Origin: Schmidtea nova
Taxonomy: Eukaryota
Assembly: GCA_044892505.1 (NCBI GenBank)
Contig: CM097883.1
Location: 250,604,001 to 250,668,000, forward strand
Reading direction: 5' to 3'
Length of the DNA: 64,000 nt
Positions 3,531 to 62,557 of the stretch are shown one piece after another. A program made the translations under genes and the position numbers. How positions within the stretch are numbered: position 1 is the first letter of the stretch; every line of letters starts with the position of its first letter. Below the pieces are notes generated by a model. The model searched no databases and was not told the DNA's origin. It saw only the letters and a list, made by a program, of their open reading frames with translations.

Positions 3531-5424
3531 GACAAGGAATGTTATTTAAAATGCTGACGAATACATTATTTTGAAGGACTTATGTCGGATAATGATAAAG
3601 GTGATCAGTTTGAAAGATTTGATTTTATTCAGTTTTAAAAATATATTAAGGTGGTGGTTTCACCGTTGATTTTTTTTCTGAAGCATACCAAAGGTTGCGG
3701 TGGACGACAGTAATTACACCTAAAGGGAGGTCATTGCGATGTTTGATAATTTTGTTAACAACATTAAACAAATTCGATCATAGTGTTGGTATGGGTTGGA
3801 AAAAATTTTGTTTCTAGGGATTAGTGCAACATACATACCTTTATGAATATTGTTAATACTTCACCCAAACACCCATAGTTACTCCTTAGTAAATTATGTT
3901 GATATTGTACACGATGGCGAGAATCCAGAGAACAGATAAGCTTCATTGCCAAAATTACTCCTCGCTGTATTCTCTCTTTCGGGTCCCTTCTGATGATAGA
4001 ATAAGTTACGCATATATCAATTTAAACGATACTTTAAACTTATAAATTTTTATCTTCCTGTGATGTCATTTTATGATTCTACCCTATACGTTTATTTATT
4101 TCCCTAAAATTATCATAATAACAACCACAATATATCATTAATTCTCTTTCACCCCAGTCAATCTATATAATTTAAGTTTGATGATCCGGCCTCCCAATTG
4201 CACCTCTGCGAGAATGAATACCAGACACACCGAAGATCCACGACCTAATGGCCAACATGATCTTTGCACGAATTCAGTTTTTATCGGGAAAATTAACTGA
4301 ACAAAGCAAAACAAACAAATGTATGGTTAAACAAATATTTATTATTGATTACAAATAACATAAAACGCAATTACATATAAAGAATAATAGTTTCAACAAA
4401 CTTGATAGATACATAAAATAACAACATACTTGTTTCCGAGGTACCACAAAATTGAAAAGGAACAATACTGACTGGTGCTGGCTGGCAGAATTGAAATCCA
4501 TAAAAATCCCAGTTAATGTATCCTTCCGCAAAGGTAAGTAAAAATGTATTAACAGTAAGTTTACCGTTCAAAGTTATGATTTTTCAGCTTCTATTTATAC
4601 ATTTTTTGTGTGAAATCTACGCATTGTTAATTAAAACAAGAATATTTAAAATTTAATTCATATATTTATTCTAATATTTAAATTATTTATTTTAATAAAT
4701 GATTATTTATTTATTTTCCTTAAATTTAATTTTATAATTAATTTTAGTTTTTTCAAAATATTTATTTTTAATTCTATTAAATAATGGGTGTATATACTTT
4801 TTGCACGCATTAATTGATTGATTATGTCGGGCAAAAACTGCAAATTGTTTTAATAAAGCAGTAACCCATAAGTAGAGATCCCGCAAGATTCAATTTTAAC
4901 CCAAACATTCATTGAAAACCAAAGTGATTAAGAGAAAAACGTCAAAAAGGTGAAGTGGACTCAAGCACAGTAACCAGTAGAGTACGCGCTAGCTGTGAAT
5001 TTGCAAGTTCCTTCACTGAAATCTCGAGAAAAATTAAATATTATCCAAAGAAGAACGTTTGAAGGTTTGATTAAGCGGAAAACCCATTGAAAATGGTCAC
5101 AAAAAACAGAATTTTGTCGTAAACCTTCAGTGCAGAAAAATTAACACAATTTTAGAAGAAAATTGTGATTTTATCACAAAATTTCACATTTAACAATAGA
5201 AAGAACTAATATTGATCGAAATATCGTAAATTAAATCAAATCGAACAAATTTCGATTCAAAAATAAAAATTTTGAATTAAAATAAATTATTTGTGGTTTA
5301 TAAAAAATTATTACACAAAAATATGTATTTAATTTTCGGAAAATCATTAGAATTAATTTAGAAAAAATTAAAAAGAAAATTCTAGAACAATTTGTTTTAT
5401 TGCACTAGTGAAGATAGCGCAAAA

Positions 5425-5460
5425 TCGATGGTATATATACCGCCATCAAAATGGCAATAA
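5425..5460 (+). promoter_or_regulatory. Palindromic TATA (GGTATATATACC) next to YY1-like CGCCAT/AAAATGGC motifs in W
   Basis: Motif conserved in W2 at ~10010-10050 (reverse orientation). Confidence 0.5.
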
Positions 5461-6194
5461 TAAGAATTTGTAAGATTTTTCGTGAAAATTTAGAATTTGT
5501 GAAAATTATCAGATTTTTTAAGAATTTGTTATTGTCATTAAGAAAAATTTTGTTGAAAGAATATTTCCCGAGAATTTGTTAATGAATTTTCGTGAAGAAA
5601 ATCCTTTGAAGCGGAACTCTGAAATTCTAAGAAGGGATTAAAGGAAGAAGGAGATAAAATCGAGAACCCGATACAAAGATTTTTGCGCGAATTCGAAGAT
5701 TTTATCCGGAATATAAGGAGTAATTTTGTTTTATTATTTTTATTGGGGTTTGGGATCGTCGCTCATCATGCCTGACGATCATCCCATTCCTCGCACTTTG
5801 TTAATTAATATGCTATTTATTATTTTATTTTTATTGATTATGCATTTTTATTATGATATTATTAAAATATTTAATGTTATCAACTCAGTTTTTCAAATTT
5901 TCTTATTACTATTATTATTATGAATCATAAATTCCCAACATAATTAAAAGATTCTCTTTGCAAGCAGTTAACTAAATAAAATTATGAAAAATAAAGAATT
6001 TTTTTTCCTCCCATATCTTCTGACGATCCGTCCAGCCTTGCGTTGTGCGGATTTGTAAGTAGCCTGGGTGGATCATTGTCTGATTGGTAATCGGCCAGCC
6101 CATTTTTCCACTTTAAGGTGAGGCTCATACATCCATAATCACGTCATCCCAACTAAGGAATCGTGGTATGGCTAAGAGCAAGGATTTGTTATAT

Positions 6195-9100
6195 TGGTGG
6201 GTTGTTGATCGTCAATATGACCTTGACGTTTCTATGGCTCTCATCAACAACTCAACACATAAAACATTGAAATAACCATCTTGTTACCCGTCACTATGTT
6301 ACGTTGGTACTGTAACAAGTGGGTGGGTATTCGCAATCAGTGAGCGTCGTCAATACGAAACTATGATTGACCGAATATCTCCTGGGTCCAAGGGCTACCG
6401 ATAGAAGGTTTATTGCCCATTTTGTCCCATCTTACATGATTTAACTACAAATATCTATCTCAAAAATGAAATAATTTCACCGATAAAATCTTAATAATTT
6501 ATCTCAAATCAATACTTTCACACAGTTTTATCTAAATTCACAGGAATTTTCGCACTTTTATTCTATTTGCAAGCATGCATTCGAAGATGTTATCGCAACT
6601 CAATTGGGTGATCAATTATTCCTGCATATATTTGGGAATATACAAATTACCCTTATTTAGACCCAAATTTTTTTTTATTCTCGCGATTTTCTTAAATTAT
6701 TATGTCTTTTATATTTAAAATTCATGTAAACTCTATTTATATTCAAATCCTATTGTCTATCTTACTCTAAATTTATAATATAATTTTTATTAACATTTTA
6801 GCGATTTATACTTTAAATTTTTACCGCGGCCGTGACAACGGGTTTGATTCATTAAAACATTTCCATTTATAATTAATAGTCACATTGTTAAATATGGATT
6901 ACATTAGGAATTTTATTTGGTAAATCCCCCTTTTATTCTGTTCCAGGCAAATTTCACTTGGATTTTTGATCAAAAGGATGAAATCTACATGATCAAACTT
7001 TTCCATGCTAAAAATTTTGTTATAATGCATCAATTGATTTTACTTTCAATGACATTATTTCAAAGTTTCGTCAGCCAAATTCCCCAATTTCTCAAGTAAA
7101 ATTCTTTTACTAATTTTAGCTTAAAATGATTTTCCTTGTAGTATCATTTAATTCAAAACAAAAGCTATTCAATCTGGCATAATTGCTGGAATCCCTATTC
7201 AAATGCCTCGGCTACTCTGTTAGAATATTTTGAATATTCTCGTAATGAACCCATCCACCCAGTTTTCCGTGGACAAGTTTATAGATTTAAGAACTTTTGA
7301 TATTGTTATTTCTATTTTATGTGATGTTCAATAAAAGTTTTCCTGGTTTGATTTTAATTAGTTTATTGATTTTGTTTAGGGATAGGATGATGGCTAACGT
7401 CAGTAAAACTTCTTTTACGATGAAATTTTCCGATTAGGTTTTGATTAAATAAAATTAGTAATTATCCCTTTTCCCAGTTTTTAAAAAATAAAAATATATG
7501 TTCTGTTTCTATTACTTTATGGATAAAAAAAAATTTTCTGAATGTATTTTGTTATCATAAGGTATGTTTAACGAGTGAGGTGGGCTGATCTGTAGAGATA
7601 TGTGAGAAATCCAACTCTCAGGGGGGTGAAATTAATATAAATGCGGATTGTTGGCTAACATACATCGGGTGGGGTTTATGAATCGGCGTACTGTACCCTA
7701 TAAGGAAACTCTATATAGGATGTTGTAGTTTGCTGTGGTTTGGTGAGACGAGATGTAGTGATTGTAGGCTGGTGTGCATATGGTATAGAAATAATATGGT
7801 AATATATTGAAGTAGATATCCTATTGTTGTAGATGTATGTATTTGTATGTCGTTGTGGTTGAATGAGACGAAGTACAATGACTGTGTGTTATATTGTTTC
7901 TGTTATGTTTGCGTGTGATGTGTGGATATATGAAGGGAACAATTGAGTGCTTGTGAGTGTGGTTAGACGTACGATGCTAACTAACATGTCTGGGTGGAAT
8001 TTTCGGTATGATTTGCTTGTGTGTATATGATTGTTGAATGTTATTGAATGATACTGTGTATGTGTGTATATTGTATTTTATATGTATTGTTGCTGTATTA
8101 TCAGTATGGGTGATGCTATTGAATGAAATGGATGTAATTTTTTGCAATTAGAGATGCATCATGATTTTGAGATATCGTGGGGGTAGTTATAATATACTAT
8201 ATATAAATTATATAAAATATTTTTAGCTTTAAAATAATAATAATACTTTTTAAGTTAAAATACTAATAATAATTTTATAATACTTTTTGCAAATCTCACT
8301 TTATAATTTTCATGAAAATTAAATAACGATAAAATTTATAATTTTTATAATGTAGATTTTTGAATTTAAATTTTTATATTTTAAGAATAGATATATTAAT
8401 CATAAAATTTTTCTATAAAATTTTCGAATTCAGATTTTTACAAAATGATAAAAATTATTAATATAATAATAAAATTTCGATCTATAATTTTTATGGGGTT
8501 CGATATAACTTTTGATTTACAATTTTCTGGGATTTTATAAAATGATCAAATCTTTTATATAATAACAGTATTAGGAAAATTTTTGGTTTACAATTTTTCC
8601 ATGATAAAATCTTTGCAGCATATTAAAAAGCAAATCTTTATTCTTGATCAAAATGAAATAATAATAAATTTTTATCCATAAATTTCGAAATCCAAATAAG
8701 CATTCAACCTAAAAAGTTTTATACGCTGAATAAAAAAAAATAAAAATAACATAAGTTATAAATTCTTCAAAGAATATTTTTCGATATCGAGCAAAATGAA
8801 TTTCGGTTTTGTTGAGCATGAATTTCCCAATTAAAGTGCACGCGAATTTTTCGGGACGCTTCACTTAGGAATTTCAAGCTCTCGAAAACGAGGTTCACTG
8901 GAGAAACTTATTTAGACAATAATGAGTTTAATTCAGATCCAATCAATACTTGTTTCACAATTCGTTTCATTTCATGATCATTATACTAGCTTTGAGCATT
9001 ATTTCGAACAATTTTCTTTTCGACATTAGCTTCCGTTTTTCTTGCGTTTTTCGCATAAGATGATCGTTGTTGAGAGTGTGAAGGTGAAGGTGAGTACGAG

Positions 9101-10628
9101 TCGATTTTATTCAATAATATTTCCTATTTTAGATTTCAAGACATGAATTAGAAAATGTTTTGTTATATTACGAAATTTCTTATGTAAAATAATAAAAATA
9201 TGCTACTCTATTATAATAAAGATCATTAGTATAACAAATCCTTGCTCTTGGCCATACCACGATTCCCCAGTTGGGATGACGTGATTATGGATGTATGAGC
9301 CTCACCTTAAAGTGGAAATATGGGCTGGCCGATTACCAATCAGACAACGATCTACCCAGGCTACTAACAGATCCGCACAACGCAAGGCTGAATGAATCGT
9401 CAAAAGATATGGGAGGAAAAAAAATTTTATTTTTCATAATTTTATTCAAATAACTACTTGCATGGTATTTTAAGTATTTTGGGAATTTGTGAATATCAAG
9501 AAAATTCAAGATTAAACTGAATAAAAAATGAATTTAATATTTAAATAATACCATAACAACATATTAACATTAAATAAAATAAAATAATAGATGCATTATG
9601 AACTAATAAAGCGCGAGGAATGGGATGATCGACAGGCATGATTACCGACGATCCCATACCCCTCGAACAAGTTTAAAGAGAAAATAAAATAGAAATAAAA
9701 TAACCCTTACATTCCTGTATTCTCAATTTAATTTCTGCTCCAAAGGACTTTCTCCACGAAATAAATTAACAATTTAATTTCTGCCCAATGCTAAATTCTT
9801 TTAGAAAATTTTCAATAAGTTCTCCGGAAAGTTTTTCAGAAAAATTCTCAATAAAATTCGGCTGAAAATTTAAATTCTCCCGGAAAGTTCTTCAAATCCT
9901 TTTGGAAAAAATTTTTTTTAACAAGTTCTTCAACAACTTCTCTTAGAAAAATTTTAACAAACTAAATTCGATTAAAATAAAAATTTTTGTTACCACAAAT
10001 TCTGATTATTGCCATTTTGATGGCGGTATATATACCGTCGATTTTTCGCTATCTTCACTAGTGCAATAAAACAAATTGTTCTAGAATTTTCTCTTAATTT
10101 TTTCTAAATTAATTCTAATGATTTTCCGAAAATTAATTCCATATTTTTGTATAATAATTTTTTATAGACCATAAATAATTTATTTTAATTCAAAATTTTT
10201 ATGTTTGAATCGAAATTTGTTCGATTTGATTTAATTTATGATATTTCGATCAATGTTAATTCTTTCTATTGTTGAATGTGAAATTCTGTGATAAAATCAC
10301 AATTTTCTTCTAAAATTTTGTTAATTTTTCTGTACTGAAGGTTTATGACAAAATTCTGTTCTTTATGGGCATTTTCAATGGGGTTTCCGCCTATTCTAAC
10401 TTTCACGCTTTCTTCTTTTAATTTTTCCCGAGATTTCAGTGAAAAGACTTACAAATTCGCAGCTAGCGCGTACTCTACCAGTTGATGTGTTTTGATTCCA
10501 CTTCAACTTTTGGTGTTTTCCACTTAATTGTTGATTTTTAATGGATGCTAGGGTTAAAAATGGAATCTTGCGCGTTCTCTACCTATGGGGTTATCGCTGT
10601 ATTAAAAAAATTGCGTTTTAGCCCAACA
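6195..10628 (-). mobile_element. W2: 4.43-kb W-family copy inserted in reverse orientation into W1
   Basis: atat|TGGTGGG at 6191-6201 and CCCAACA|atat at 10622-10632. 9233-10628 is the reverse complement of 4825-6190, ~7950-9230 of ~10633-11980, and 6195-6430 of 14130-14245 + 17635-17751. Confidence 0.9.
8756..9036 (-). pseudogene. Disabled copy of W orfA
   Basis: Aligns to 10825-11108, with ATG>ACG, TGG>TAG and 1-nt indels. Confidence 0.75.
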
Positions 10629-10824
10629 ATATTAATGATCTTTATTATAATATAGTAGAATATTCATACTACTTTACATAAGCAATTCGTAATATAACAT
10701 AAATTCATCCAGCTCATGTCTTGAGATCTAAAATAGGCACTATATTACTGAATAAAATTGACCCGCACTCACCTTCGCCTTCACCCTCACAACAACTGTC
10801 ATTTTATCCGAAAACGCAAGTAAA

Positions 10825-11108
10825 ATGGAAGCTAATATTGAAAAGAGAATCGTTCGAAATAATGCTCAAAGCTGGTATAATGATCACGAAATGAAGCGAA
10901 TTGTGAAGACAAGTATTGATTGATCTAAATTAAACCTCATTTATTGTCTAAATAATTTTCTCCAGTGAACCTTGCTTTCGGGAGCCTGAAGTTTTTAAGT
11001 GAAGCTTCTCGAAAAAATCGCGCGCACTTTAGTTGGGAAATTCATGCTCGAACGAAACCGAAGTTCACTTTACTCGATGTCGAAAAATATTCTTTGAAGA
11101 ATTTATAA
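10825..11108 (+). CDS. W orfA: two-exon gene (10825-10912, 10966-11108), ~76 aa, unknown function
   Basis: MEANIEKRIVRNNAQSWYNDHEMKRIVKT/MNLAFGSLKFLSEASRKNRAHFSWEIHARTKPKFTLLDVEKYSLKNL. The 53-nt GT..AG intron carries several small indels versus W2. Exon differences are enriched for synonymous changes. Confidence 0.7.
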
Positions 11109-11669
11109 CTTATTTTATTTTTAATTTTTTTATCTCGGTATATAAAACTTTTTAGATTGAATTCTTATTTGGATTACAAAATTTGTTGATAAAAATTTAT
11201 TATTGTGTGGATTTCGTTTTGATCAAAATTAAAAATTTACTTTTATTATACTACGAAAGATTTTTAATGTAAAAATTGTAAACCAAATATTTTCCAAAGG
11301 ATTTGTAAATCCAAAATTATATCGAACCCCGTAAAAATTGCCAATCGAAAGTATTGTTATTATATAAAAGATTTTGTCATTTTATAAAATTTCTAAAAGT
11401 TTGTAAATCAGAAATTATATCGAAACCCATAAGTTTATAAATCGGAAATATTATTATTATATTAAAATTTTTGTCATTTTATAAAATTCCAAATCCAAAA
11501 TTTCATAGGAAAATTTTTACGATTAATATATATATTCTTAAATTATAAAAATTCGAATCTGAAAATGTATATTATAAAAATTTAGAAATTTTCTTATTTT
11601 CATAAAATTATAAATTTAAAAATTTATAAAAATCATTATAAAATTATTAGTATTATTTTAATTTGGAAA

Positions 11670-11675
<6 letters not shown>

Positions 11676-11731
<56 letters not shown>

Positions 11732-11740
11732 ATTATATAT
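11676..11740. repeat. (AT)n microsatellite inside W1
   Basis: Direct reading of the sequence. Confidence 0.95.
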
Positions 11741-12417
11741 TATTATTATCGAAACCCCCTCGATATCTCAAAATCATAAGGCATCCCTATTTGCAAAAAT
11801 TTACATCCATTCCATTCAATAGCATCACCCATACTGATAATACAGCAACATACAGATAAAATACAATATACACACATACACAGTATCATTCAATAGCATT
11901 CAACAATTATATACAAACAGGCAAACCATACAGAAAATCTACACAGTTATGTTAGTTAGCATCAAATCTCGCATATACAATCACATATTGATACATGCAA
12001 ACTTTTACATTCAAATTATCATATTAAGTCCCATCCATCCATTCGTAAAGTACAAAAATTTCATAAGTCAGTAATATATATCAACCAAGTACAATTATCA
12101 TGCACCGGTAAAACCTTAAGATTCCGATTACCCGAAAATATAATCCTCATTCATAATAAAGAAGAATCTAATGTTCTCTAAAAGTTTTATCTCTTATCGT
12201 TGATTTGAAATCGTTTTCCCGGACTGGATCGATGAAATTTCAAATCTCCGATCATAAAATTTTTTTTTTAATTTTTGTATAAAATTTCGATATTATGAAG
12301 AAAATAAATAAATTGAAGTAAGATTCCTAAGTTTTTAATTTTTTATTATTAATTATATCATGGAAATCGTAATCAAAAATTTAAGAGAAAATTCATAAAA
12401 TTTTTATTTTTACTTAC

Positions 12418-12836
12418 AACATGACAAATAATCACAAGTGTCTCCAATTCCAAATAACTATTTGTGGAAATAGTTCAGATATCGTGGCAACATTTCTTCT
12501 GAAAATTTCAATTGTCGGGGCGAGTTCCACGAGAGAATCAATAAATTCTGAAGTTATAATGTAAAAGATTGAATAATTTAATCTTATCCCACTTACGATT
12601 TCACTTGTCGAACGGCGATACCGATAGCTTCTTTGAATGGCTGGCATCTGAAACTAGTATCTAAATTAGGAATGAAATATCATAAAGGAGTAAATACAAA
12701 TCAACTTACCGCTAAATCCAGTTGAGATCAGGGGGAATCCTATTCTAAAAATAGAAAAATAATCAATAATTATAATATGCAAAATCAAATTCGTATACTA
12801 TAAATTAACCAATAGGAATCCACCAATTTTGCTTAC
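12418..12836 (-). other. Possible multi-exon antisense transcript in the W1-specific cargo
   Basis: Minus-strand GTAAG donors at 12836, 12709, 12596 and 12417, with TAG/CAG acceptors at 12745, 12661 and 12548 (introns of 92, 49 and 49 nt). No clean joined ORF found. Confidence 0.35.
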
Positions 12837-13455
12837 TCGTTTATATAGTTTTCTTCTTTCACAGGGGAACAGCGTTGTTTTCAGGGGTATCCGGATCCGA
12901 TTTGGATTTTCTAAAATGAAATTTAATTTGAAATCTGAAAATATGGAAAATATTTAGAATTAATAGATAATAATTAAATTAATTTTACTCAATATTTAGG
13001 TAGCTTATATTGATACCGTTGCCAATGCCTCGGTGAAAATTTAAATATAAATTTATTAAAACTTTAAAAATAAAATTCATAAAATTTCCATCAGAATAGC
13101 AAGTTAGACACTAGGTATAGGGGATTAAAAATCTTAGCTCGAATTTTTAGTGAAAGAAAAGGGCTAAGAAAAAATCGAAATTCTGAAGTAAATAAGCATT
13201 TGGACATAGATAAGAAAGAGCTAATACGTGATGATAAAAGATTCTTTCGTTTCGATTCCCGAATTGAGGCTTGATAGGCATACCCATGGAAAACTCGCGA
13301 TCGAATATGTGAGAGCTCCTTAAAGTATTGTAATAACAAATGAACTAATTAAATCTTAGTGTATGATGATAAATGTTGTAATTATTGTGCATTAATCATT
13401 ATCGATATGTATTAAAATACTTGAATACTTTTAGCAATGAACCCAATGCAACAGC

Positions 13456-13923
13456 TTGAGGGAATATACAAGTTATTACTCGAAAATGCAAGGCACAATA
13501 AAATTTCGGGCCCGCTGTCGCGAAATGGAAGCAACATGGTCCGACAAGGAAACAGTAGATCGATTGAAAAAGCAAAATCAACTAATGATGCAACAAGCCG
13601 CCGAAGACGCAATGAGATTGCGGGCGTGTCGTGTCTCAATGCGAGAGCAGGAGCTCGTGAATGAGAAACTAAGGGTAGATAGTGGCCTCATCTCGGCCAT
13701 ACTACCGAAATCTCAGCCTCCACCTCAGGAATTGTTCCCGGTGAGAGTGGAGGAAGAAATCGCAGCAGCAGCAGCTCCGACCAAGCCAAAGCGATGGAGG
13801 CCCAGTAAAGGAGCAAGAGCTAGGAATAAGCGTCGCCAAGAAGCGCGAGTATTAGGCCAATTGGGAGTAGAGGCCTCGAAAATCATTGATTTTAACATTG
13901 ATTTGACCAGTACACACATTTGA
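13456..13923 (+). CDS. W1 orfB: ~155-aa coiled-coil protein with an Arg/Lys-rich patch; true start uncertain
   Basis: Open, GC-richer ORF. A ttttag acceptor at 13434 is followed by ATG 13437 in another frame (possible frameshift); the first in-frame ATG is at 13486. Contains KPKRWRPSKGARARNKRRQ. AATAAA follows the stop. Confidence 0.65.
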   Translation: MREYTSYYSKMQGTIKFRARCREMEATWSDKETVDRLKKQNQLMMQQAAEDAMRLRACRVSMREQELVNEKLRVDSGLISAILPKSQPPPQELFPVRVEEEIAAAAAPTKPKRWRPSKGARARNKRRQEARVLGQLGVEASKIIDFNIDLTSTHI

Positions 13924-14249
13924 TGTGATCCTATAATAAATGTTGTTTTATGTTACAATTATAAGTTTTCAATTATGTTTTTTTCAATTTGTTTGTTTGA
14001 ATGAGGATACAGATAAAAATAAAAGAGTTCAAATAAATTAATTGATTAATAAATGAACCACGGTTTAGCGAAAATATTCAAATGGAGATCTCGTATGGAA
14101 AATCCACAGCGATAGAGCGGTTAATTTAAAGGGACAAAAATGGGCAATAAACCTTCTATCGGTAGCACTTGGACCCAGGAGATATTCGGTCAATCATAGT
14201 TTCGTATTGACGACGCTCACTGATTGCGAATACCCACCCATTTGTCCCA

Positions 14250-17200
14250 TTTGAGGCCCTAGGCAAAAATCAATTATTGTGGCCCCTCTAAGATTTTTTT
14301 TTAAATAATAAATAATTTTTTTTTCATGGCTTAGTTTCTAAATTTTGACCAAAGAAAGCCCATTTATAATATTTTTTTTCGTGATTTATTATTTGCAAAA
14401 TTATCAATTAAGGAGTCATAGTTAATTTTTTTGACTAGATCGCTTTCAATTGCCATGATAGCTAAGTGATTTAGTTTTTTTTGGCCAAGTGACGTCCTTA
14501 GGTAGTTTTTGACCCGCTTAAGAATGCTAAATGATCTCTCACCAGACGCATTTGCAATTGGGATTGTTAAAAATTTTTTTAGGATTATTTCAACGTTTGG
14601 AAATGTTGATGATAAACCTTCCATAATTGATGCATACATTTCAGGAAGTGTTAATAATTTTTCCAATTTTACAAAATGAAGGAACTGTTCAACCTCATCT
14701 TTGAATACTAATTGATTTATGTCATCTTTATAGTGTTCAGCTAAATTTGATACACACTGAGCAAATTTTTCTTCAGGCAAATCTAAATCAACAAATATTA
14801 GAAACTTTTCTAATACCTTGTCATAAACTACAGACCTTCTTTTTATTTCAAAGTTAAAAGTATCACAAATTGAGTAAAATGTTTCAACTTTGAATAGTTC
14901 TTTCCCACATAAAATTGTGTCATTATCAGAAGTTTCATCGAATAGTATTTTTCTTTTCCTGTTTCGATTTTTTGCTGTTGAGTATTCTGTACTACCAGAT
15001 AATTCGATTGCTTCTTTTTCCATTTGGTGAAAATATGCATCATTAGTTCGAATACTAAGTATGAATTCTGATAAAGATTTCAATAAATATGTTCCTTTTT
15101 GTAAGTTACATTCTTTGCTTTGTAACGACTTATTGGTGGCATTGATTCTTTGCAATAGCGTATTCCAAAAAATCAATAACAGAGCCGTCTCTAAATCTTC
15201 AAAACTGCTATGTAATTTTTTCGCCTCAATTTTTGCTATGGGTTTTTCAGATGGGTTAATACAAATTTCACCAAGAACAGTTTTTATGGAAAAAATTCAT
15301 TCTTACAGTTAATACAGCTTCAGCTCTAACTGACCATCGAGTGTCGCATATACGTTTTAAACTATGGCTTAATTTTTGATCAGTATTCATTAGCTGATCC
15401 CATCTCTTTGTCGAAGAGGAAAAAAACAAACAAATTTTGAATAAAATCAAAGAATCTAATAGCTTTAGAAAAACATTCTGCTGCTGTATTTCCAACTACA
15501 TTTAAAGAATGTCCTGCGCAAGGTACAAATTCAGCATTTTGCTGTAACATTTAATTTTGGCTTGGAGACCGTTATAAATGCCTGACATGTTCGCAGCATT
15601 ATCATACGTTTGTCCCCGGCAATTATTAATATTCAACCCTAATTCTGACAAGGCGGACAAAATCGTTTTTTCTAAATATGTTGCATCATGATGTTCAATC
15701 GAAATAAAACATATGAACCTTTCTTGAATTTTTTGATCCAGATCTACGTACCTGATAATAATAGTTAACTGGTCAGTATGGCTTGCATCAGGCGTGGAAT
15801 CAACTATAAGAGCAAAATAGTTAGCTTGGTTTATTTCATCAACAATGGATTTTTGTACGGTTTTGCCCATAAGTTCTATAAATTCATCACACGTGCTTTT
15901 AGATAAATAATTAACATGCCCACTTCCGCAATTACTGTATTTTTCTAAGTGAACCTTTAAGAAGTCATCAAATTCAGCCAAATATTCAATACAGCTGAAA
16001 AAATTGCCTCTGGAAGAATTATCATGTCCTCTGAACTCTAAACCCAAACTTCCCAAAAGTTTAACTGTAGCAACGACTCGTTTTAATACCTCTCACCAAT
16101 AAATTGACTCTTTTTCTATTACCTGTAAAAGTTTGGAATCGATGCGACCACTTATTTTAGCACGACGAACATAAGCACACATACAACTTTTATGTTCTTT
16201 CGACTCATCATGTCTTTTCAAAACGTCTACAATATTTTTCCAATCTGAATATCCTGAAACTAGAACATTAGATTTTTTACTAAATAGTTTACAAGCAAAG
16301 CAATAAACAGATTTCGTTGTTTCAGAATAAATCAACCATTCTCTTAGCTCTTGGACTCCGTTTATTTTAGTCGTATAAAAATGTACATCATTTAATTTTC
16401 GGTATATTTGTTGATCATTGTTATCTTTATAACATTTTTTAGAAGACTCTAAATCTCCCACATTTTTGGGTTTTGTACAGATACAATGTTCAATCACATC
16501 ATTAGTAATTATTTTTGGCCATAAACCAATGTCAGTAAAGATAGGATAAGTATTTGTACTTACTACTTCACTCTCAATTTCAACCTCAATGTCATTGGTA
16601 GTGGCAACGCAATTATCACTTGCACCTACTTCTGCACAAAGACTGCTTATCGAAAGATTAACATCGCTATCAGCTATTACTGGTAGTGAAACAGTTTTAT
16701 CTGCAGCCGCAGTACTGGTAGATGGAATATTTTTATCCAAAGACATAAATTTAGCAAGGGAGTTTCTTTGCTTTTCGTTTTCCTTCAATTGAATTTTTTT
16801 CGCAATTGTTTTTGTGCGCCAGACTCGAAAGTTCTTTTCATTTTAACGTATATTTGTCAATATTTTTTTTTTAAATAAAATGGAATAATTGTCGAGTGAA
16901 TTATGAAATATTAAATGACGAAAGCAAGAAGCAACAACGATTGGTTTCGGTAGTTTTAAAAAAACTGTTGATTATTCAGAAAATATCAATCTAAAATCAA
17001 AATTATGCTAATAATCAATACGTACAAATATTTATTTTCAATATTCAAAATCATGCAACGAAAATTTGATGTTAACGTAACAAAATTCAAACAATAAATG
17101 AAATGAAATTGCATATGAAATGCTATGACTATTGTTTGTATTTTTTAAAATAATTTTATTATTTTTCTTTTTAATTTTTCAGAGTTTAAAACCTATTCGT

Positions 17201-17634
17201 GGGGCCTCAAATTCAATTGATAAAATAAAATTAGTAGGCCTTTACAAAATAAAATATATTATATTCAAAAAATAAAATTCAAACCTTGCTTGGATGTTGC
17301 TTTTATCCTATTTGTTATTTTTTCTTATAAATTCTTATAAGTAAAAGAATTTGAACATATTCAAAAAGGAAAAAAGCAACATCCAAGCAATATTTTGTAT
17401 ATCATATATTTTATTTTGTAAAGGCCTACTAATTTTATTTTGTAAATTGAAATTGAGGCCCCAAAAGGTTTTAAACTCTGAAAATTTTAAAACTGTTAAA
17501 GTTTAAAATGTAAAATGCTACGACTATTGTTTTTTTTAAAAAAAAATTATAATTTTTTTTTGTATTTTGGAGGCCCTTATAAATCCGAGGCCCTAGGCAA
17601 ATTCCTAATCTGCCTACAGGTAAATACGCCGCTG
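14250..17634 (-). mobile_element. hAT DNA transposon inserted in the W1 terminal block; left end lost
   Basis: Intact terminus CAGCGGCGTATTT (minus strand, from 17634) and subterminal gaggccctaggcaa repeats at both ends. No matching terminus or TSD on the left. Confidence 0.8.
14364..16841 (-). pseudogene. hAT transposase (ZMYM1-like, TTF-type Zn finger, hATC dimerisation domain), frameshifted
   Basis: MKRTFESGAQK N-terminus; WLIYSETTKSVYCFACKLF; FALIVDSTPDASHTDQLTIIIRYV; CRGQTYDNAANMSG; CDTRWS; GERSFSILKRVKNYLRTSL. Split over at least 4 ORFs. Confidence 0.92.
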
Positions 17635-18184
17635 ATTACCAACGTTACTTAGTGACGGGCAACAAGATGGTTATTACAATGTTTTGTATGTTGAGTTGTT
17701 GATGAGAGCCATGGTAACTTCAAGGTCATATTGACGATCAACAACCCACTAATTAAAACAATAAAATTTAATTTCTATTCTATTTTCATTTCTATCTCTG
17801 TTGTTTTTAGATATTTTAACCGGGATTTCTTCTATAATTTTTAATAAATTATTGTTGGGTCCGCCAAATAGGCTAGAACAACAACAATAGAACGAAAGTT
17901 TAAAATAATAATAAAATAATAAACATAAAAATAGCAATAAAGACAAATTAAAAATAGGAATAAAATAGCAAATAATATTTAATAAGTTTCCAGTAAAAGG
18001 AAATTTTAAAAATAAAACGGTAAATAACAGCAAAGGGGGCCTGAAATAAGAAAATTAAGAATTAAATAAACTAATAGTACAAATAATTAATTAATTACTC
18101 GAAAAACCAGGACCACCCAGCGAGAAACCGGAAAAGGAAATAAAATAATGTTTGGATTTAAATAAAATAATAAAAACACTTTGA

Positions 18185-18245
18185 TGGACGGTCTGATCCT
18201 AATTGGTCAATCCGACCAGCCGGATCAGTATAAATACCGATCCGA
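18185..18245 (+). promoter_or_regulatory. Pol II-type promoter of V (ATTGG/CCAAT box + TATAAATA at 18229-18236)
   Basis: Block conserved in V' at ~32200-32265 (reverse) while flanking sequence diverges. Confidence 0.7.
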
Positions 18246-18527
18246 AAATCACAACTGTTAACTGTTATTTTTAACAAAACTCGTTCACTGACACACACAC
18301 AATTTTTACTTACTTATCGAGCAACCAATTTTTACTCAATTATCAATAATTTCGAGAATCGTTTTTAACCAAATCTTATATTCGAAGAAAAATTCAACCC
18401 AAAACAGGGTACGGAATCGTAACGTTTTATTTTAATTGTATTATAATGTTTTAATGTACCTATGATTTTTATTATTACAATTTTATATCTGATTTTATTT
18501 TTATCATTAATTTAATGCATATAGTTA

Positions 18528-18612
18528 TGCTTCCTAGGCTGCTCACGCGGCAAGGGAGCCCGAGTCGTCGTTGTGGGGCCTCACAGTCTCACGTGGCGGT
18601 TCCACCTTTTTA
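18528..18612 (+). ncRNA. Putative structured RNA element: two hairpins followed by T6
   Basis: GC-rich island conserved with V' 31818-31900; stems retained with compensatory or wobble changes, loops changed. Confidence 0.55.
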
Positions 18613-19323
18613 TGAATTAATAAAACATTTTCAATGATATCATTGACAAGTTTGCGTTAAAAATTTCATAATTCGGTTGCACAGAGGACAGGGCGCGAGA
18701 GATAGCGGGAAAAGATTTGAGGGTTTCCAGAAAGTGTGAAGCCTCCTACGGATGGCAGGTAACCGATGTCCGGTTAATACATTAAGGTTGTTTATTTTTA
18801 AGCCAGGAGATCACATGGGAAGCGAGAAATTTTTAGATTTTCGTTAACAATCGATTTTAGTGAAAAATTTCATAGAGGCCAAAGTCCACAATCAATCTAT
18901 CGACACAATTCAATTAAAATCTAAAATGTAATTATGATTGAATTCCGATCGTATTAGACGGAATTCCAACTAATACTATAAATAACTTTATGCCGATCGC
19001 TGTATATAGCGCGGTAACCCCGAACTTTATTATCCTAAACGTCGTACATGACGCAGGAAGAATTTAAAAATATATTAGTCCGACCGTGGTATATCGCGGC
19101 GAAGAAAAAGAATAGAATATCAATATAAAAAAAATCAACTCGAACAAAGTACAAGGATGAAAAATAAAAATCGAAAAACATGAATATTAGTACAGTTCAA
19201 GTCAATAAATCTTGCACGGAGTAAAACGGGAACGATAGATATCCGACGTGTTATAACTGAGACTAATTTACGGTCCATAATTTCGATTTATAATCTTTAG
19301 AAAATTTTTTCGAGGCAGCACAG

Positions 19324-19824
19324 ATGGCGGTAACAAGCCTAACCCAGATCCTAACCGAGCTCAGAAATTCGATGGACATACCCAAGGAGGGCGAGATGGA
19401 AGACACGCTCAAGGAACTTCCACCTCAAATTCTACGAACCATCAATGCGCAAATGTACAAATGGCGCCAGGGATTCGATAGAAAATGCCCGTTTTCCATC
19501 TGGAAAAAGGGGAGAGATCAGATTCTGTATAGAGGGGCCCCAGATGGCCAATCTCAGATGGCCAATCTCAGATGGCCAATCTCAGATGGCCATTATTCGA
19601 AAAAATTCGGCCAGCTACTGATCCGAATAACTGGCAAGGATAAAAGGGCAGATCAACTAATCTACTGGGGACACATACCGCGAAAGGAACTGCGCAACCT
19701 GAAGCTACAGGAGTTCATTCCTCGAAAGTCCTTCGGAAGGGAAGGCGCAGATGATCAACCTCCGTTTACGTGGGACAGGCTTCGTACAGCCCCAATTAAT
19801 CAGGAATTACATATTCTTTTCTGA
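19324..19824 (+). CDS. V orf1: 166-aa protein of unknown family
   Basis: Open ORF, homologous along its length to V' 30532-31040 (AQMYKWR/AQMFKWR, KCPFSIW/KCPLSIW, WPIS, YSKKFGQL/YSSKFGRL, YWGHIP, PINQELH/PINQGLH). CAG directly precedes the ATG; AATAAA downstream. Confidence 0.85.
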   Translation: MAVTSLTQILTELRNSMDIPKEGEMEDTLKELPPQILRTINAQMYKWRQGFDRKCPFSIWKKGRDQILYRGAPDGQSQMANLRWPISDGHYSKKFGQLLIRITGKDKRADQLIYWGHIPRKELRNLKLQEFIPRKSFGREGADDQPPFTWDRLRTAPINQELHILF

Positions 19825-19987
19825 AAATGACAATTATGTTAATTATATAACAATAAATGTGGTGTTAAATTATAATCTATTTGTTTTCCGTATTGCGTTC
19901 TATATTAATTCACTACAGACTGTTATTAAATTTAAATGATACATCAGCATACGAAAGATGGAACTTTAAAGTTTTCCAATTTTAGAC

Positions 19988-20584
19988 ATGAATTTAGAAG
20001 CCGCCCAAAGAGAGATTGAAAAGATGTGGCGGATCCGGAGAGCCCAGGACAAGGAGTTGGGTCTCCTCAAGGAAAGATTGGCCAAGTCCGAAGCGCAAAC
20101 TGCCTATTTCCGTAAAAGCTGGTTCGCTCCTGCTCGAATGAAGGAGCAGATTGGCAAAACCGAGCGCGCACAACGAACAGCGGACGACTACAAAATGGAA
20201 TGGGAAGCTACGGAAATCGAGCTTCGTAAATGCTTACATTCGGTAACCGCTTCCTACATCGAACAGGAGCTGCGGGATCAAATCCGACCGGTAACTTACC
20301 AAGAATGGACGGCGGAGAAAAAACTGGGAACGTCGATAGGCACAGACGTCGACGGCCTCATCGAAATTAGTAACGAGCAAGAACCATCGATCAATCCTGC
20401 CGCTCAAACTGCCAATACCCATCAGAAACGTAAGCGCATAGGGCAGAAAAGGCGTCGACAAAGAAAGCTGTTCGCTCAACGGATGCAGAACCAAATCGAC
20501 GATCTGCACAAATTAACCGAGAAAGCGCTATTGGACGAAATATTTCCTCCAGCAGGAATTTTTAGTGATTTGATCGAGAAATAA
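19988..20584 (+). CDS. V orf2: 198-aa coiled-coil protein with Arg/Lys-rich patch (KRKRIGQKRRRQRK)
   Basis: Open GC-richer ORF; ttttag acceptor 2 nt before the ATG; AATAAA after the stop; weak similarity to W1 orfB (LRxC..S..EQEL). Confidence 0.75.
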   Translation: MNLEAAQREIEKMWRIRRAQDKELGLLKERLAKSEAQTAYFRKSWFAPARMKEQIGKTERAQRTADDYKMEWEATEIELRKCLHSVTASYIEQELRDQIRPVTYQEWTAEKKLGTSIGTDVDGLIEISNEQEPSINPAAQTANTHQKRKRIGQKRRRQRKLFAQRMQNQIDDLHKLTEKALLDEIFPPAGIFSDLIEK

Positions 20585-21930
20585 ATACAAATTTTGAACG
20601 ATTATCATTCCTATTATTTTCTTCGGTTTAGTTTAATTAATAAAAATAAAGTAAATAAATAATTATGAGAGCACTAGATTAGAAAGTTTCATTCAACGTA
20701 AAAGATAATAAAGAACAATCCTCCGAAATTTTATTGTAAATTACATAGTATGTCATTAAAGCGTAAGTCCTTCAAACGGCCGCAATGAACCCGTAAACAT
20801 AAATGGGGAGTAGTACTAGCAATAGTGCTCACCTGCCCATCATTGTTTAATCACCCTGCGCATCACCAACTTGATTATCCAGGGAAATAATCAAGGGCGC
20901 TTGAGTGTTTAGTTGCACATTTTATGTATGATCATGGATGAGGGATTCCTAGTCATTGTTAGAACATTTTTCATCTAACCCCTCCATGAACCCAGCATTA
21001 TTCTCTTTATTTTGATACTAATTTTATTCTTCAAACATGCTTTTTATTAGCAATGATCTTCCCCATTCAATTCTCATGCGGTCTTTCGTGTGTAAATTGG
21101 ACCTGCATTCAAATTTGTGCTCTCTTTTGAGATGCGTATTTTTCATCGTTTTTCCCTAACTCGAGCGACGTATAAAATGTGGTTAGTATGACTTATATTT
21201 GTGCTTTAATATCCTATTTACTTTGATGCTATTTTCATGTTTAAAACTCTTATGCGTCATCGTGAGCTTTTAATTTAATTTTGAAGTATTAAAACAAAAG
21301 TTGAACCTCACTTCTACCAGCCCAACAATAGTGTTTATGCCGCGGTCTTGCCAATATATTCATCGAGTATGAAAACTATGTTGTGGATGATGTCTTTGTA
21401 GCTAGCTACCCTTGACTAGCCAAGACATGATCGCTATAGACAGCGAAATATTGATGCCCAGATCTAATTGATCTCAACTTTGGGAAACGACCCTTGTGGA
21501 CGCGAGTACTTGCCCAGTGTGTCTTTTAGGCAAAGGCATTTAATCCTCGCTCTTTAGGACTGACAATAATAAAGCACATTTACTTCGCCTTGATAGAATT
21601 TTTATAATAATGATTATTAAAAGTAATAAAAATCCTTAATAATAATTATACCAATTATAATTTATAAGAATTAATAAAAACAAAAAAATTATATTAATAA
21701 ATATAAAAATAATAATACTGAGAAAAAATACCAAATAATAAAAATAATTAATAATAAAAAAGCTTTTAAGAAGTAGTTAATAATAAAAATAATTGTAATA
21801 ATTAATAGTAATAATTATTAGTAATAATAATAAAATTTAATAAAGAAATAAAAATAATTATTAATAAAAATATTAATAATAAATAATATTATCATAATTT
21901 TCTTTTTGTTTCACCTTTGATCTTTTTTAA

Positions 21931-23372: not shown

Positions 23373-23844
23373 ATCGGTCGCGTTTCATATTCTAGGTCTG
23401 TACTAGGCTGTTTTTTATCATTAATTGTTTCTTATTTGTAATTCATTTGTTGAAAATCCGAGTGAAGACTTTTTACATGTAAATTTTAATATATTGTTGT
23501 TTTTTGCCTGGAAATTGTTAGTTTTATATATAATTTACCTTTTTTACTTTCGGAGAATCTGAGAATTGGCTGTTTTATATGTAAATTTGACTGTGTTGTT
23601 GGTTTAAACCTGAGAATTTTTAAGTTTTACTTTGAATGGACCATTTTTACATTTGACAATCAGAGAGTTGACTCTTACGTGGAAATTGTACTGTTTTAAT
23701 GCTTGACTATGTAATGATTATGTAATATACACACATGGGGTAGTGGTTCAGACTCCTCACGTCCACCTACTACAAAACTTCAAACGCCTTTTTCGTGCCA
23801 AAACCGGCCCGATCGAGTTTTTAGTGAAACAATAGATAGACAGA

Positions 23845-54055: not shown

Positions 54056-55349
54056 CGTGGTTGCTTCACGAAGTACCTGCACTCGATATCAAAAATAAGA
54101 GATATTATAATAACTTTATGCTTCCGTTGTAGAGAATTTATAAAAGGTTAGAAATCTTCATTTTGTTTTATTTAACCAATATTTGTTTAGAGCAAATATT
54201 TAATCAATCAAAATATGGCAATTTTAAGCATTGAATATCGGTCGGTGATTAAGTTTTTTGTAATGTGCGAGGCTTCAAGATTAGAGATATTAGCAATGCT
54301 CCAAGAGACGTATAAAGAAGACTGTCCATGTGATTGAACTATTTATTTTTGGATTAGTGAATTCAAAAGTGGAAGAATGTCAGTTATTGATGAATCAAAG
54401 CAAGGAAGACCGATTGAAATTGATGAAGACAGAAAGAAAAATCAGATTGAATCGTTAATTAAAGACGAACGAAGGATTACAGTAAAAGATTTGGCGAAGT
54501 ATGTCAATGTCAGTGTCGGTAAGTGTCATGAAATGATAAAAGAGATGGTGTGCGGAAGTTGTGCAGCAGGTTTGTTCCTTATTTTTTATCAGTTGAATTG
54601 TGTGAAAAAAGGCTAATGATTTGTGAACACAATCTTGCACTGTTCTAGGAACATGGTGAGTCATTTTTGAAAAACATTATAACGGAAGACGAGACACCAC
54701 TAAGTCTTTATATTCCAGAAAGTAAAAGATCTTCAGCAGAATGAAAGTTTCTAGATGAAAAGCCGACAAAGAAGCTGAAATCTCAACCATTCACCGTCGA
54801 AATTTGATGCTCTCGATTTTTTGGGATAGTGATGGAATAATCAATATTGATTTCGCAGATAGACAAGTTAAAATTAACAGTGTTTATTATTCTAATCTCA
54901 TTGAACAAACTCGGAAGCTTCGACGAAAAAAGAAAAAAACAAATTTGTGGCTGCTTCACGACAATGCTCCAATTCATGCATCAAAACTTGTGTCGGAGAA
55001 AATTGTTCGATGTGGCTTTTCAACATTGGAACATCCTGCTTATAATCCTGATCTGGCTCCAAGTGATTTCTATTTATTTAGACATTTGAAGAAACACTTG
55101 GCTCGTAAATTCTTTGTTTCTAGTGATTCGCTAAAGGAGGAAATAACAAAATTCTTCGACGAAAAACCAAAATCGTTCTACGATAACGGGTTTTTAGAAC
55201 TTCCTGTTTGTTGGAAAAAGTGTATTGAGAACAATGGCTCTTACATTGAAAAATAAGCCTAGACATGTCGTAGATTCTAAAAATAAATTTGTTTTGTCAA
55301 TATCTTTTGTTTTTGATACCGACTGCAGGTACTTAATGAACCAACCACG
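54056..55349 (+). mobile_element. Full-length mariner (1294 bp), transposase pseudogene 54215-55256
   Basis: ~50-bp TIRs TA|CGTGGTTG...GATATT; EYRSVIKF, ITEDET, LHDNAPIH and HPAYNPDLAPSDF motifs. Confidence 0.95.
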
Positions 55350-56981
55350 TATTTCTAGCATTGACGATGTAATCCTGGATTAAAAACGCAATTAATATGG
55401 AATTAATTTTTGATTAAAAGTGAAGCAGAAATATCATCGTAAATTTTAAATTGGAGAAAAATTTTAATTCATTTATTCAAATATTCAAATCAGATTTATC
55501 TTTTTTACACACCAGATTGTGAAGTAAATTAAAAAAGTAACTTAAATCTGTCCGATTTCAGAATTATTTTTAAATATTATAGAATTATTTGATATATTTT
55601 TTACTCAACAAAATTGAATTGTCAAAATGTGATTTATGAATTAACCGCCATGAGTTTGATTATGTCATAATTTTATCGTCGTAATTACATTCTATCCAAT
55701 CAAAAGAAACAGATTGATATAATTAATATTATAATTATTTTTTATTAATAAATTAAAATTTTTTTAAAATTTAAAATAGTTTAATTATGAATTTTGAAAT
55801 TTATTTATACTTTTATTAATTTTGTAATATATTTTTGTAATATATTTTGTAATAAATTTTAATTTTTAAATGAAGGAAAATATTTCATGTCATAAATAGT
55901 TCATTAAGCTTCTTTTTAAAATTGTGAAGTAATTGGGAAGTAATAAAAAAATAATCCGAAAAAAATTTAATACATGTTTATTTATAACATTTTTTATAAA
56001 GCTTAATATTTTGTGTACATAATGCCATAACGACGCCACTTAAAATAATTTACTACTTATTTATACCATTTTTTAAATGTCAAATACAGTGTTAAAAGTG
56101 GAAAACCAAATTATATATATATATACATTATTCAAACAAAACAATTATTATTGCAGAAACACCGTATAAAGGTCATTAAAAACAACAATGACCACAAAAA
56201 ATATAACAAATTTTCAAAGATGTTTACTAACTGTCAATGCATTTCTTCGTTTTCATTGTCAGATATAAAAGTATGTATTTTTTTTTATTTTCTATCTTGC
56301 TTTTCAACATAATTGTATGCCATAAAGAAGATTTTATACATTGTTAGCCAACCGTTAACGCACAGGTGAGTTTATTTTATATTATAGAATTTTATTATAG
56401 GGATTTTAATGCATGTTATACACCGTGTTTCACTCATTAGATTCAGCTATATAACTCGCGAGTGTGACAAACCCAAGGTAATTGGAAATCAATTTTTTTT
56501 AAATTTCATGTATTAGTTAACTTTTGTTGAGCTGGCAGAAGCGAGGTTCAATTTTTTTCCCAATTCGTCGAAAAGCAAATACACACAAAAAGAGGATAAA
56601 ATAAATTGCACGATAACACATAAGAGCATTAAACTGAAAAATAACTTAAGATTATATAGAATATTAAAGCGCAATATAGTAGGCATACGAATCGCATTTC
56701 ATAAATAGTTTGAGGTAGTGAAAAACCAATGAAAAAAATGCATCTCAAAAGAGATTACACAATTTGAGTGCAGGTCGGATTTATATACGAAGAACCGCAC
56801 GAGAATTGAATTGGGAATATCATTACTAATTAAAAGCATGATCGAAGAATAAGATTGTTATAAAAAAAAGAGAATAATTTATTAAAAATTAAAGAAAAAA
56901 CCCCCTTTAAAATATTGTAAAATTAACAGAAATATGAAGGAAAATAGAATAAAAATTAAATTTGATATTTTAAATTTGATT

Positions 56982-59212: not shown

Positions 59213-59524
59213 TCGTATCGGGGTTGCAACTTTCATTGCTGATACCCCTAAAGCAAACGTTAATAAGAAAAATTCAAAAATAAACATTTATTTAAAAGAT
59301 ATCTTTCGTTGGTTAAAATTCTGCTTGTTGAAATTTTCTGCGTTTTTAGAATTTCAAATCAAATCTCATTTTTTCTTCTTTAAAACAAAACTTTTATATA
59401 TATATATATATCGATATTTTTATTTAATATAAATATGTTATATAATATCTTAAAATTATTTAAAATATAAATAAATAAATATATAAATAAATATATATTT
59501 AAATATATAAATAAATATATGTCA

Positions 59525-62500: not shown

Positions 62501-62557
62501 CCATATCGTCACATCACCCGTGCCATCAAATTTTTCAATATATTTAATAACTTCCAT
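59525..62557 (-). mobile_element. Ty3/Gypsy-type LTR retrotransposon internal region (gag-PR-RT-RH-IN), degenerate, no LTRs seen
   Basis: Gag KFDGTGDVTIW and two CCHC knuckles; protease AVIDSG; RT IRPVLDYRELN, LDLSKAYLQI, YIDD; RNase H CDAS/NVAEL/SDS/NKAD; integrase HEAHH..CVKC, MDN, GIVERNHRTVKR, truncated near 59525. Confidence 0.93.

Follow-up and report, generated by a model that had tools for sequence, protein, structure and literature searches.

Antisense, intron-containing host DNA in a variable LTR zone of a Burro-type planarian retrotransposon, probably captured by read-through and template switching

The window, a stretch of 64,000 nucleotides of Schmidtea nova DNA analysed as a whole, contains two copies of a repeat, W1 and W2, which are confirmed as solo LTRs of an LTR retrotransposon. 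The family is a Burro-type Ty3/Gypsy element, and in the middle of its LTR lies a zone carrying host DNA that is antisense and retains introns; this DNA probably entered by transcriptional read-through and template switching. Such host content is observed for two genes, Y14/RBM8A and RPL37A.

Two nested LTRs and the element that owns them

The features are listed in Table 1. W2 runs opposite to the W1 copy that encloses it. Circular permutation and a polydnavirus-like segment were also considered, and both are rejected because W2 is nested in W1. The earlier note described W without recognizing it as an LTR. Its statement that the two copies have ~2.7 kb of 5' arm and ~240 bp of 3' arm in common is borne out: within the 2.66-kb 5' arm they align over 647 bp at 87%, 449 bp at 83% and 1,331 bp at 79%, and the 234-bp 3' arm aligns over 115 bp at 97% and 113 bp at 92%, W1's being split by a hAT transposon. 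An AATAAA lies close to the start of the W2 3' arm, and in 5' LTRs the primer-binding site (PBS) follows this arm.

Table 1. Features of the window (positions in the window; strand as +/-)
Feature	Position	Strand	Remarks
W1 solo LTR	4825..17751	+	~5.1 kb minus W2 and hAT; ends TG..TA; TSD ATTA
W2 solo LTR	6195..10628	-	4,434 bp; ends TG..CA; TSD ATAT; nested within W1
W2 3' arm	6195..6428	-	234 bp; 91-100% identity over 28 cargo types
M2, W2 middle	6429..7968	-	CA-rich resident zone followed by exon-like cargo in antisense, ~6881-7325 (+ strand coordinates)
W2 5' arm	7969..10628	-	2.66 kb; common to family members
M1, W1 middle	11968..14130	+	
W1 antisense cargo	12418..12910	-	exon-like segments 12910-12837, 12744-12710, 12660-12597, 12547-12418
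Island common to M1 and M2	~13016..13090 (approximate)		74 bp
orfB, sense accessory gene	13437..13923	+	190 aa in other copies; acceptor-like AG right before ATG
W1 3' arm, part one	14131..14245	+	
hAT-type DNA transposon	14246..17634	-	nested in W1 3' arm; end near 14246 eroded
W1 3' arm, end part	17637..17751	+	
V, separate element	17853..20997	+	TG..CA; TSD TTAT; two ORFs; resembles a solo LTR, no internal region seen
V', distant 3'-truncated V relative	30470..32599	-	begins 32599; lower boundary approximate

Among 12 further W copies with both ends readable, 10 have a matching 4-bp TSD. Exact junctions of the LTR end with the PBS, which we take to be of the tRNA-Pro type, number 1,809, with a 10-nt spacer and the start TGGGGGCTC; the reversed control gives 0. 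All three 5'/3' LTR pairs compared are near-identical (99.98, 99.71 and 99.88%), the first across its entire cargo and the other two with partial coverage, and the cargo occurs in both LTRs of young elements. In a check for a polypurine tract, the 30 nt preceding the 3' LTR proved to be the same in six elements, yet not purine-rich. The LTRs of the family range from 3.5 to 5.8 kb. Downstream of the LTR, ORFs of 1,808 and 3,197 aa, which come from adjoining stretches (L147 and L148) analysed separately, encode gag, CCHC, MATH, fusion-env, PR, RT, RH, IN and ankyrin domains. On these polyprotein domains (~5,000 aa, in-frame env), the W family is assigned to the Burro-type giant Ty3/Gypsy elements. 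Burro and GYPSM1 are giant Gypsy-like planarian elements, which in the portions of the paper used here have the same gag, CCHC, MATH, PR-RT-RH-IN and ankyrin content, with env in frame between gag and protease, as well as derivatives with BIR, RING and TRAF ORFs and copies in the thousands (PMC6431247). The additional domains described there sit in the internal region, and, in contrast to W, these portions make no mention of variable host-derived LTR DNA (PMC6431247).

The other repeat pair of the window behaves differently. V' has ~370 + 120 bp at 75% in common with the 5' part of V, and the earlier note saw in the two the same pattern after orf1. This does not hold, as no V-type 3' arm for V' occurs anywhere in the window, and past orf1 its sequence yields to a Polinton-like element.

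The variable zone and its contents

The middles were compared in the first 100 5' LTRs by position on one contig (C1), a sample that is not random; one LTR lacking the 5' anchor (L197) was left out, and the 99 with both arms make 101 middles together with W1 and W2. Between the conserved arms, these fall into 28 types, a number that hinges on the 60% coverage cut-off, and many of them are mosaic, with the same core seen beside differing neighbours in separate copies. A middle other than the major type is present in 45 of the 99 sampled LTRs. The left breakpoints between types spread from ~+87 to ~+827 of the middle; the cargo slot spans a zone and is not confined to a single base. The clustering of middles and mapping of breakpoints that the earlier note proposed thus uphold its cassette-like variable locus, and remove the fixed position it had given to it. 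Its description of the W1 and W2 middles as unrelated also holds apart from one island, because M1 and M2 share only 74 bp at 76% (local score 56 vs ≤36 in 30 shuffles). This island may be an antisense promoter or first exon.

One sense gene, orfB, lies in this zone. With a median dN/dS of 0.07 (381 pairs), orfB is under purifying selection and appears to be a maintained optional gene; the W1 copy is disrupted by a ~85-bp deletion near 13501. The gene belongs to no Pfam family, none of 407 candidates is a homologue, and its Atlas scores are ≤0.86; its AlphaFold model consists of four long helices (pLDDT 71, pTM 0.25). The analogy drawn in the earlier note with viral accessory genes survives for orfB alone, and fails for the antisense cargos, which in those tested are decaying host-gene DNA.

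Intron-like units in the middles are enriched on the antisense strand only: 29 vs 8.1±3.3 after shuffling, with none of 200 shuffles reaching 29, compared with 6 vs 7.7 on the sense strand. When 6 types are removed, the identified ones included, the antisense excess is still 19 vs 6.3, in a shuffle test that overstates independence because the cores have common ancestry. AATAAA occurs 141 times in sense and 70 times in antisense in the cores, contrary to what a straightforward removal of sense poly(A) signals would give.

Captured host genes and their route of entry

The Y14 and RPL37A cargos are host genes by origin. The Y14/RBM8A cargo is antisense, has introns, and is present in at least 150 copies: a cargo exon matches RBM8A (E 6e-19), and 150 of 231 candidates scored, mostly paired with partners ~15-21 kb apart. 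A degenerate-pattern search for the host gene gave 0 matches and a homologous-protein search none, and it was located via a database relative. This host gene (L254) is intact, with 5 exons and 175 aa; a GH31 gene is its head-to-head neighbour, and the 9 kb upstream are free of W and V matches. The Y14-bearing LTR copies align to L254 from 1006/1019 to 2188 at 92-98% identity and include introns together with flanking DNA, ~130-165 bp upstream and ~290 bp downstream. At this locus the 3' end of a W LTR lies exactly at the capture boundary; it starts at 2181 and is directed into the Y14 gene. The 7-nt LTR end, CCCACCA, is retained at two distinct junctions, each one base off the resident sequence, toward the LTR end, and the promoter-side junction has an overlap of 4 nt. 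Microsimilarity at the switch points is thus ~7-9 nt on one side and 4 nt on the other, in a single capture. Among ~45 middles inspected, CCCACCA is found only in the three Y14 copies and in the middle of one core (L178). CCAC is denser in the landing zone (9.6/kb) than in the remainder of the middle (1.7/kb). The LTR 3' end at the capture boundary and the 7-nt end kept at the junctions point to a combination of read-through and template switching, with Y14 as the sole capture whose donor shows such an LTR end.

The RPL37A cargo, also antisense and with introns, aligns to a host locus (L151), intron and upstream DNA included, with identities of 74-88% in the individual segments. Of the W 3' ends that face this locus, the nearest lies ~5 kb downstream and is 74% identical. 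Matches of the RPL37A family number 93, against two intact genes among the matches inspected. The tested antisense cargos (Y14, RPL37A, W1 and W2) are decaying, not maintained protein genes. All 36 Y14 cargo copies out of 36 are damaged, and RPL37A cargo substitutions by codon position are 12/15/20 vs 0/0/35 between the two host paralogues. No consistent codon bias is found in the W1 cargo, nor any codon bias in the W2 cargo. GT/AG is retained in 30-34 of 34 copies of the W1 antisense cargo, and its splice sites (0.028 vs 0.092 in exons) give a mere hint of conservation, based on 12 sites and weaker with a base-class control; at G sites this signal is absent in W2. In contigs from four runs of unknown kind no joints occur at predicted introns, which weighs neither way. 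A Pfam search over 265 ORFs names no cargo other than Y14 and RPL37A. The 20 protein matches (of 118) retrieved for the W1 core are all LTR and give no donor; the 20 (of 70) retrieved for the W2 core all contain LTR sequence and likewise give none. A W2 exon seemed kinase-like by its motif, for which PDB gave no support; a W1 ORF has no PDB match.

These observations can be assembled into a model. An LTR downstream of a host gene would read through the gene backwards, and reverse transcriptase would then change template at a few matching bases, placing host sequence in the LTR by an RNA-mediated capture. The variable zone would lie within U3, immediately upstream of R, where antisense pieces may persist because genomic RNA does not read their introns or poly(A) sites. 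Recombination between co-packaged RNAs could later exchange and trim the cargos, and the W1 and W2 cores presumably have the same origin as the Y14 and RPL37A cargo. Most antisense cargo is likely a decaying passenger.

The host-derived cargo could instead have been captured as DNA, by break repair or gene conversion via microhomology between LTRs, with retrotransposition amplifying it afterwards. Introns and flanking DNA on both sides of Y14 are present as in a genomic copy, and later selection at the RNA stage can explain the antisense bias under either route. This route is nevertheless unlikely, since the Y14 copy starts exactly at an LTR 3' terminus and extends the way that LTR is transcribed. 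Of the LTR on the donor side just 7-9 nt remain; repair by homology would presumably have exploited the long 3' arm.

If Y14 and RPL37A were exceptional, most middles, W1 and W2 too, might be old diverged LTR sequence reshuffled by recombination and nested insertions. Most types lack a donor or family, some middles have long additional insertions (5.4 kb in L095, 4.2 kb in L100, 4.1 kb in L210), and further V copies have middles that are divergent yet still alignable at ~66-68%. However, the W cores have no detectable mutual similarity although the flanking arm is 91-100% identical, the blocks common to different middles (90-97% identity) stop abruptly, and the antisense intron excess outlasts the removal of the identified types, which makes this quite improbable. 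That the middles are independent transposons at a preferred insertion site, with their own TSDs, is the outcome that the earlier note named as fatal to its reading; it is hardly credible. The arms do draw nested insertions (W2 into W1, hAT into the W1 3' arm), but W1-type cores adjoin W arms at 37 of 37 loci inspected, and W arm sequence is present at 49 of 50 for W2-type cores. Neither M1 nor M2 is flanked by terminal repeats, no transposase domains occur in the 265 ORFs (Pfam), and the 99 sampled middles include no empty-site allele, the shortest common type being 0.82-0.90 kb. The combination of own termini, TSD and free-standing copies that marks a nested independent transposon is not found for the W1 and W2 cores inspected. 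Capture by read-through and template switching remains the preferred reading.

Known systems and what the slot may mean

In retroviral transduction, transcription reads through into host DNA and a non-homologous switch follows; in the classical form, the host sequence is sense and spliced and comes to lie in the internal region. The proposed W capture has both steps in common with it, and differs in that its cargo is antisense, unspliced and within the LTR. Genes are also encoded in U3, as in MMTV sag and HIV nef, which like orfB are sense genes near the LTR 3' end; no sequence relation of orfB to a known protein was found.

The comparisons that follow concern parts of the cited papers. Retroviral transduction by read-through is mentioned in PMC5131818, which describes LTR-mediated retroposition in metazoans (Tan et al., 2016). 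As in W, templates are switched at short microsimilarities, copies are partial or chimeric, and they are amplified further as non-autonomous elements. There, spliced mRNA replaces part of the internal ORFs, whereas in W unspliced antisense DNA with its upstream flank lies inside the LTR, is duplicated along with it and stays behind in solo LTRs, and for one donor the LTR end is at the boundary; with its introns kept, this cargo is not an intronless mRNA copy in place of internal ORFs. In Adineta vaga, Penelope elements move intron-containing host genes, and an antisense template was proposed for intron retention (PMC3846280). Unlike W, this is another retroelement class, with rare events, genes between pseudo-LTRs, and no family-wide LTR zone described in that part. 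Maize Helitrons, Pack-MULEs and Sireviruses carry, like W, many chimeric decaying gene fragments, with possible small-RNA cross-talk or camouflage (10.1101/777037). Only 3% of Sireviruses hold fragments, and these without orientation bias, in contrast to the non-major middles and antisense-only intron enrichment of W. LTR swapping is the subject of a reference title within PMC6894440, and PMC11410931 and PMC8532177 give general background. The freely readable texts searched, without supplements, yielded no published account of host-gene capture within an LTR.

Since the capture site is the LTR and not the internal region, the cargo is doubled at each transposition and spread as solo LTRs. For Y14, the capture of a host gene by an animal retroelement can be followed from an intact donor through an adjoining LTR end and two junctions to more than 150 decaying copies descended from it. 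It is a doubtful but testable idea that the slot is a selected host-sampling device, which keeps loading antisense copies of essential housekeeping genes into a repeat transcribed by every copy as a shield or for host-gene knock-down. If so, small-RNA defence against the element would also strike the captured genes, or element RNA would silence them. Y14 would then be a pointed choice, given that in Drosophila the exon junction complex governs the splicing of piwi, and in planarians the maintenance of stem cells (PMC4197963, PMC4197968 and PMC8544814, each in part). LTR-borne cargo would also swell apparent gene families and muddle RNA-seq, RNAi and piRNA mapping. The entry route of intron-containing DNA into LTR elements, and the protection of transposons by captured fragments, are thereby opened to testing.

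LTR identity of the W repeat

The W repeat, of which W1 and W2 are the two copies in the window, is an LTR. Copies start with TG and end with CA, the 4-bp TSDs match in 10 of the 12 with readable ends, and in some copies a PBS-like motif follows after a 10-nt spacer. This junction of LTR end, spacer and PBS-like motif occurs 1,809 times, the reversed control giving 0. One such LTR is followed by ORFs of 1,808 and 3,197 aa, which contain gag, CCHC, MATH, viral fusion, protease, RT, RNase H, integrase and ankyrin domains. This is the same architecture as that given for the Burro elements of planarians (PMC6431247), and it makes a planarian host probable. Within three 5'/3' LTR pairs identity is 99.7-99.98%, and in one of them this covers the entire cargo. 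Other W elements (L131-L138, L145, L146, L149 and L150) are 15-21-kb non-autonomous derivatives, each carrying a number of separate ORFs (RING, ankyrin/protease, TRAF, BIR-RING and orphan ORFs); no RT was found in those scanned. The 30 nt before their 3' LTR are identical among them and not purine-rich. In the window, a hAT transposon is also present in the W1 3' arm.

Coordinates of features in the window and of two loci elsewhere in the genome
Feature	Position	Strand	Remarks
W1	4825-17751	plus	TSD ATTA; window self-comparison and flanks of genomic copies
W2	6195-10628	minus	4,434 bp; TSD ATAT; inserted inside W1; same basis as W1
Third repeat, ~700 bp	881-1560; 4570-4824, continued 17752-17852 and 20998-21327; 56525-56975		received W1 as well as V, at neighbouring AT-rich positions
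Two ORFs of V	19323-19824; 19970-20584		without Pfam family
Polinton-like element	23812-30454		tandem repeats at 23812-24860, then protein-primed PolB with endonuclease VII domain, with stops and frameshifts
Acidic/basic ORF	45563-46021	minus	152 aa; without Pfam family
Mariner remnants	47729-48793; 54338-55256		
Gypsy-type gag-pol	59380-62615	minus	degenerate
L254	G000:C1:579,613,126-579,616,278		intact five-exon Y14 gene, 175 aa
L155	G000:C3:24,181,612-24,184,740		stop-containing RPL37A copy; 87% identity with the LTR cargo; no W arms adjacent

A variable slot between the arms

The earlier note had described W1 and W2 as having common arms around unrelated middles, and this is upheld: the arms align in blocks of 647, 449 and 1,331 bp at 79-87% and of 115 and 113 bp at 92-97%, and the middles are unrelated except for one 74-bp island of 76% identity, whose score exceeds 30 of 30 shuffles. 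Its extension to V (a separate TG..CA element) and V' (a distant, 3'-truncated relative) fails, as only their 5' sequence is common and no other V-type 3' arm is found in the window. The middles of other V copies are diverged but still alignable. At the 24 V loci inspected, the flanks are diverse, with no common PBS-like flank.

The LTR sample consisted of the first 100 listed junctions, all on contig C1, with both arm anchors present in 99. Together with W1 and W2, these give 101 middles in 28 clusters. The commonest type (0.86 kb) makes up 54 of the 101, one with a long insertion, and the remaining clusters hold 1-5 each; 3' arm identity across types is 91-100%. The middle types are mosaics: blocks of at least 300 bp at 88% identity or more are common to 34 cluster pairs, the W1 module carrying orfB (a sense ORF) is combined with the cargo-bearing core of W2 in L236, L237, L240 and L241, and in L219 the first 409 bp of W2 lead into another core. 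Left breakpoints between types spread over positions from about +87 to +827, and the first 350 bp of the middle are CA-rich, with CCAC at 9.6/kb versus 1.7/kb in the remainder. By eye, the middles of L065, L073, L075 and L087 have in common a short antisense first-exon-like piece followed by differing sequences, which suggests a single old capture, overwritten several times. That the cores are free transposons was largely ruled out: W1-type cores adjoin W arms in 37/37 inspected loci, arm sequence is present in 49/50 inspected loci with W2-type cores, and a search for terminal repeats of cores found none.

Host-gene cargo and its capture

One core contains the RBM8A/Y14 gene, antisense and with introns; 231 candidates were examined for this cargo, of which 150 scored, and most of these lie in pairs. 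Another contains RPL37A, and aligns with host locus L151, intron and upstream DNA included. With the 3'-proximal portion of nine types, the major one among them, upstream DNA of L151 likewise gives alignments better than shuffles (z 4.3-18.6); with W1 or W2 it does not. The nine matches, in AT-rich DNA and against a simple shuffle, hint at an old capture later overwritten. The L155 RPL37A copy is possibly an intermediate or trimmed cargo. Across 29 cores, antisense donor-plus-acceptor units number 29 versus 8.1+/-3.3 in shuffles (reached in 0/200), and sense-strand units 6 versus 7.7; after removal of six identified or redundant types, antisense units are still 19 versus 6.3. Pfam named no further cargo among 265 ORFs. 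No donor was found for the W1 core among the 20 of 118 protein matches fetched (all LTR), nor for the W2 core among 20 of 70 (all with LTR sequence).

A GH31 glucosidase gene is the head-to-head neighbour of the Y14 gene at L254, in whose 9 kb of upstream DNA neither W nor V has a match. LTR copies match it at 92-98%, from ~130-165 bp before the ATG to ~290 bp beyond the stop. Exactly where this match ends, the 3' end of a W LTR starts, directed into the gene and now interrupted and truncated. At the LTR-end junction, CCCACCA is retained in two different resident backgrounds (LTR sequence already present where the segment landed); each resident has a near-identical motif, and each junction shows a one-base difference from its resident, towards the LTR end. 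The other junction is a 4-nt overlap. From this one donor sequence, the simplest reading is read-through and template switching. Transcription would read through from the LTR beside Y14, antisense across the gene, and reverse transcription would switch templates twice, placing the segment in U3; in antisense, the passenger would escape splicing of the genomic RNA. Copying of host cargo at the DNA level, instead of through RNA, seems less probable than this reading. For the read-through route, the RPL37A locus offers no clear second case of an LTR end at the capture boundary. Placement of the cargo in U3 is tentative, judged from an AATAAA near the 3' arm start. AATAAA is not depleted on the sense strand of cores.

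Fate of the cargo and known counterparts

Judged by its sequence, the cargo so far tested decays. Each of the 36 Y14 LTR copies compared with L254, 30 of them the closest matches to one damaged copy, shows damage: it lacks exon 1 or 54 bases of exon 3, or carries a frameshift. Codon-position substitutions are 12/15/20 in the RPL37A cargo versus 0/0/35 between two intact host paralogues. In the cores of W1 and W2, codon bias is not consistent and changes in length are frequent; at the few sites available, W1 core splice sites are somewhat more conserved than exons. By contrast, the 190-aa orfB, on the sense strand, is open in 29 of 53 copies, with a median dN/dS of 0.07, and occurs in 9 of 100 sampled LTRs alongside several different cores. 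Its predicted structure has long helices and a basic tail, and no relatives were found in Pfam or among 407 homologue candidates. In W1 it is disrupted by a deletion near 13501.

As read here, W capture works like retroviral read-through transduction. LTR-mediated retroposition (PMC5131818) is similar in its working, but its defining feature is intronless, internal copies, which W cargo does not show. For Penelope elements, an antisense template has been proposed for intron retention (PMC3846280), and the decaying chimeric fragments of maize Helitrons and Pack-MULEs resemble W cargo (10.1101/777037). The literature searched gave no description of a capture zone lying within an LTR and present throughout a family. 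The mechanism rests on a single donor; the variable W slot is a real feature, and the strengths of the case are a donor captured in the act and the scale of the phenomenon.
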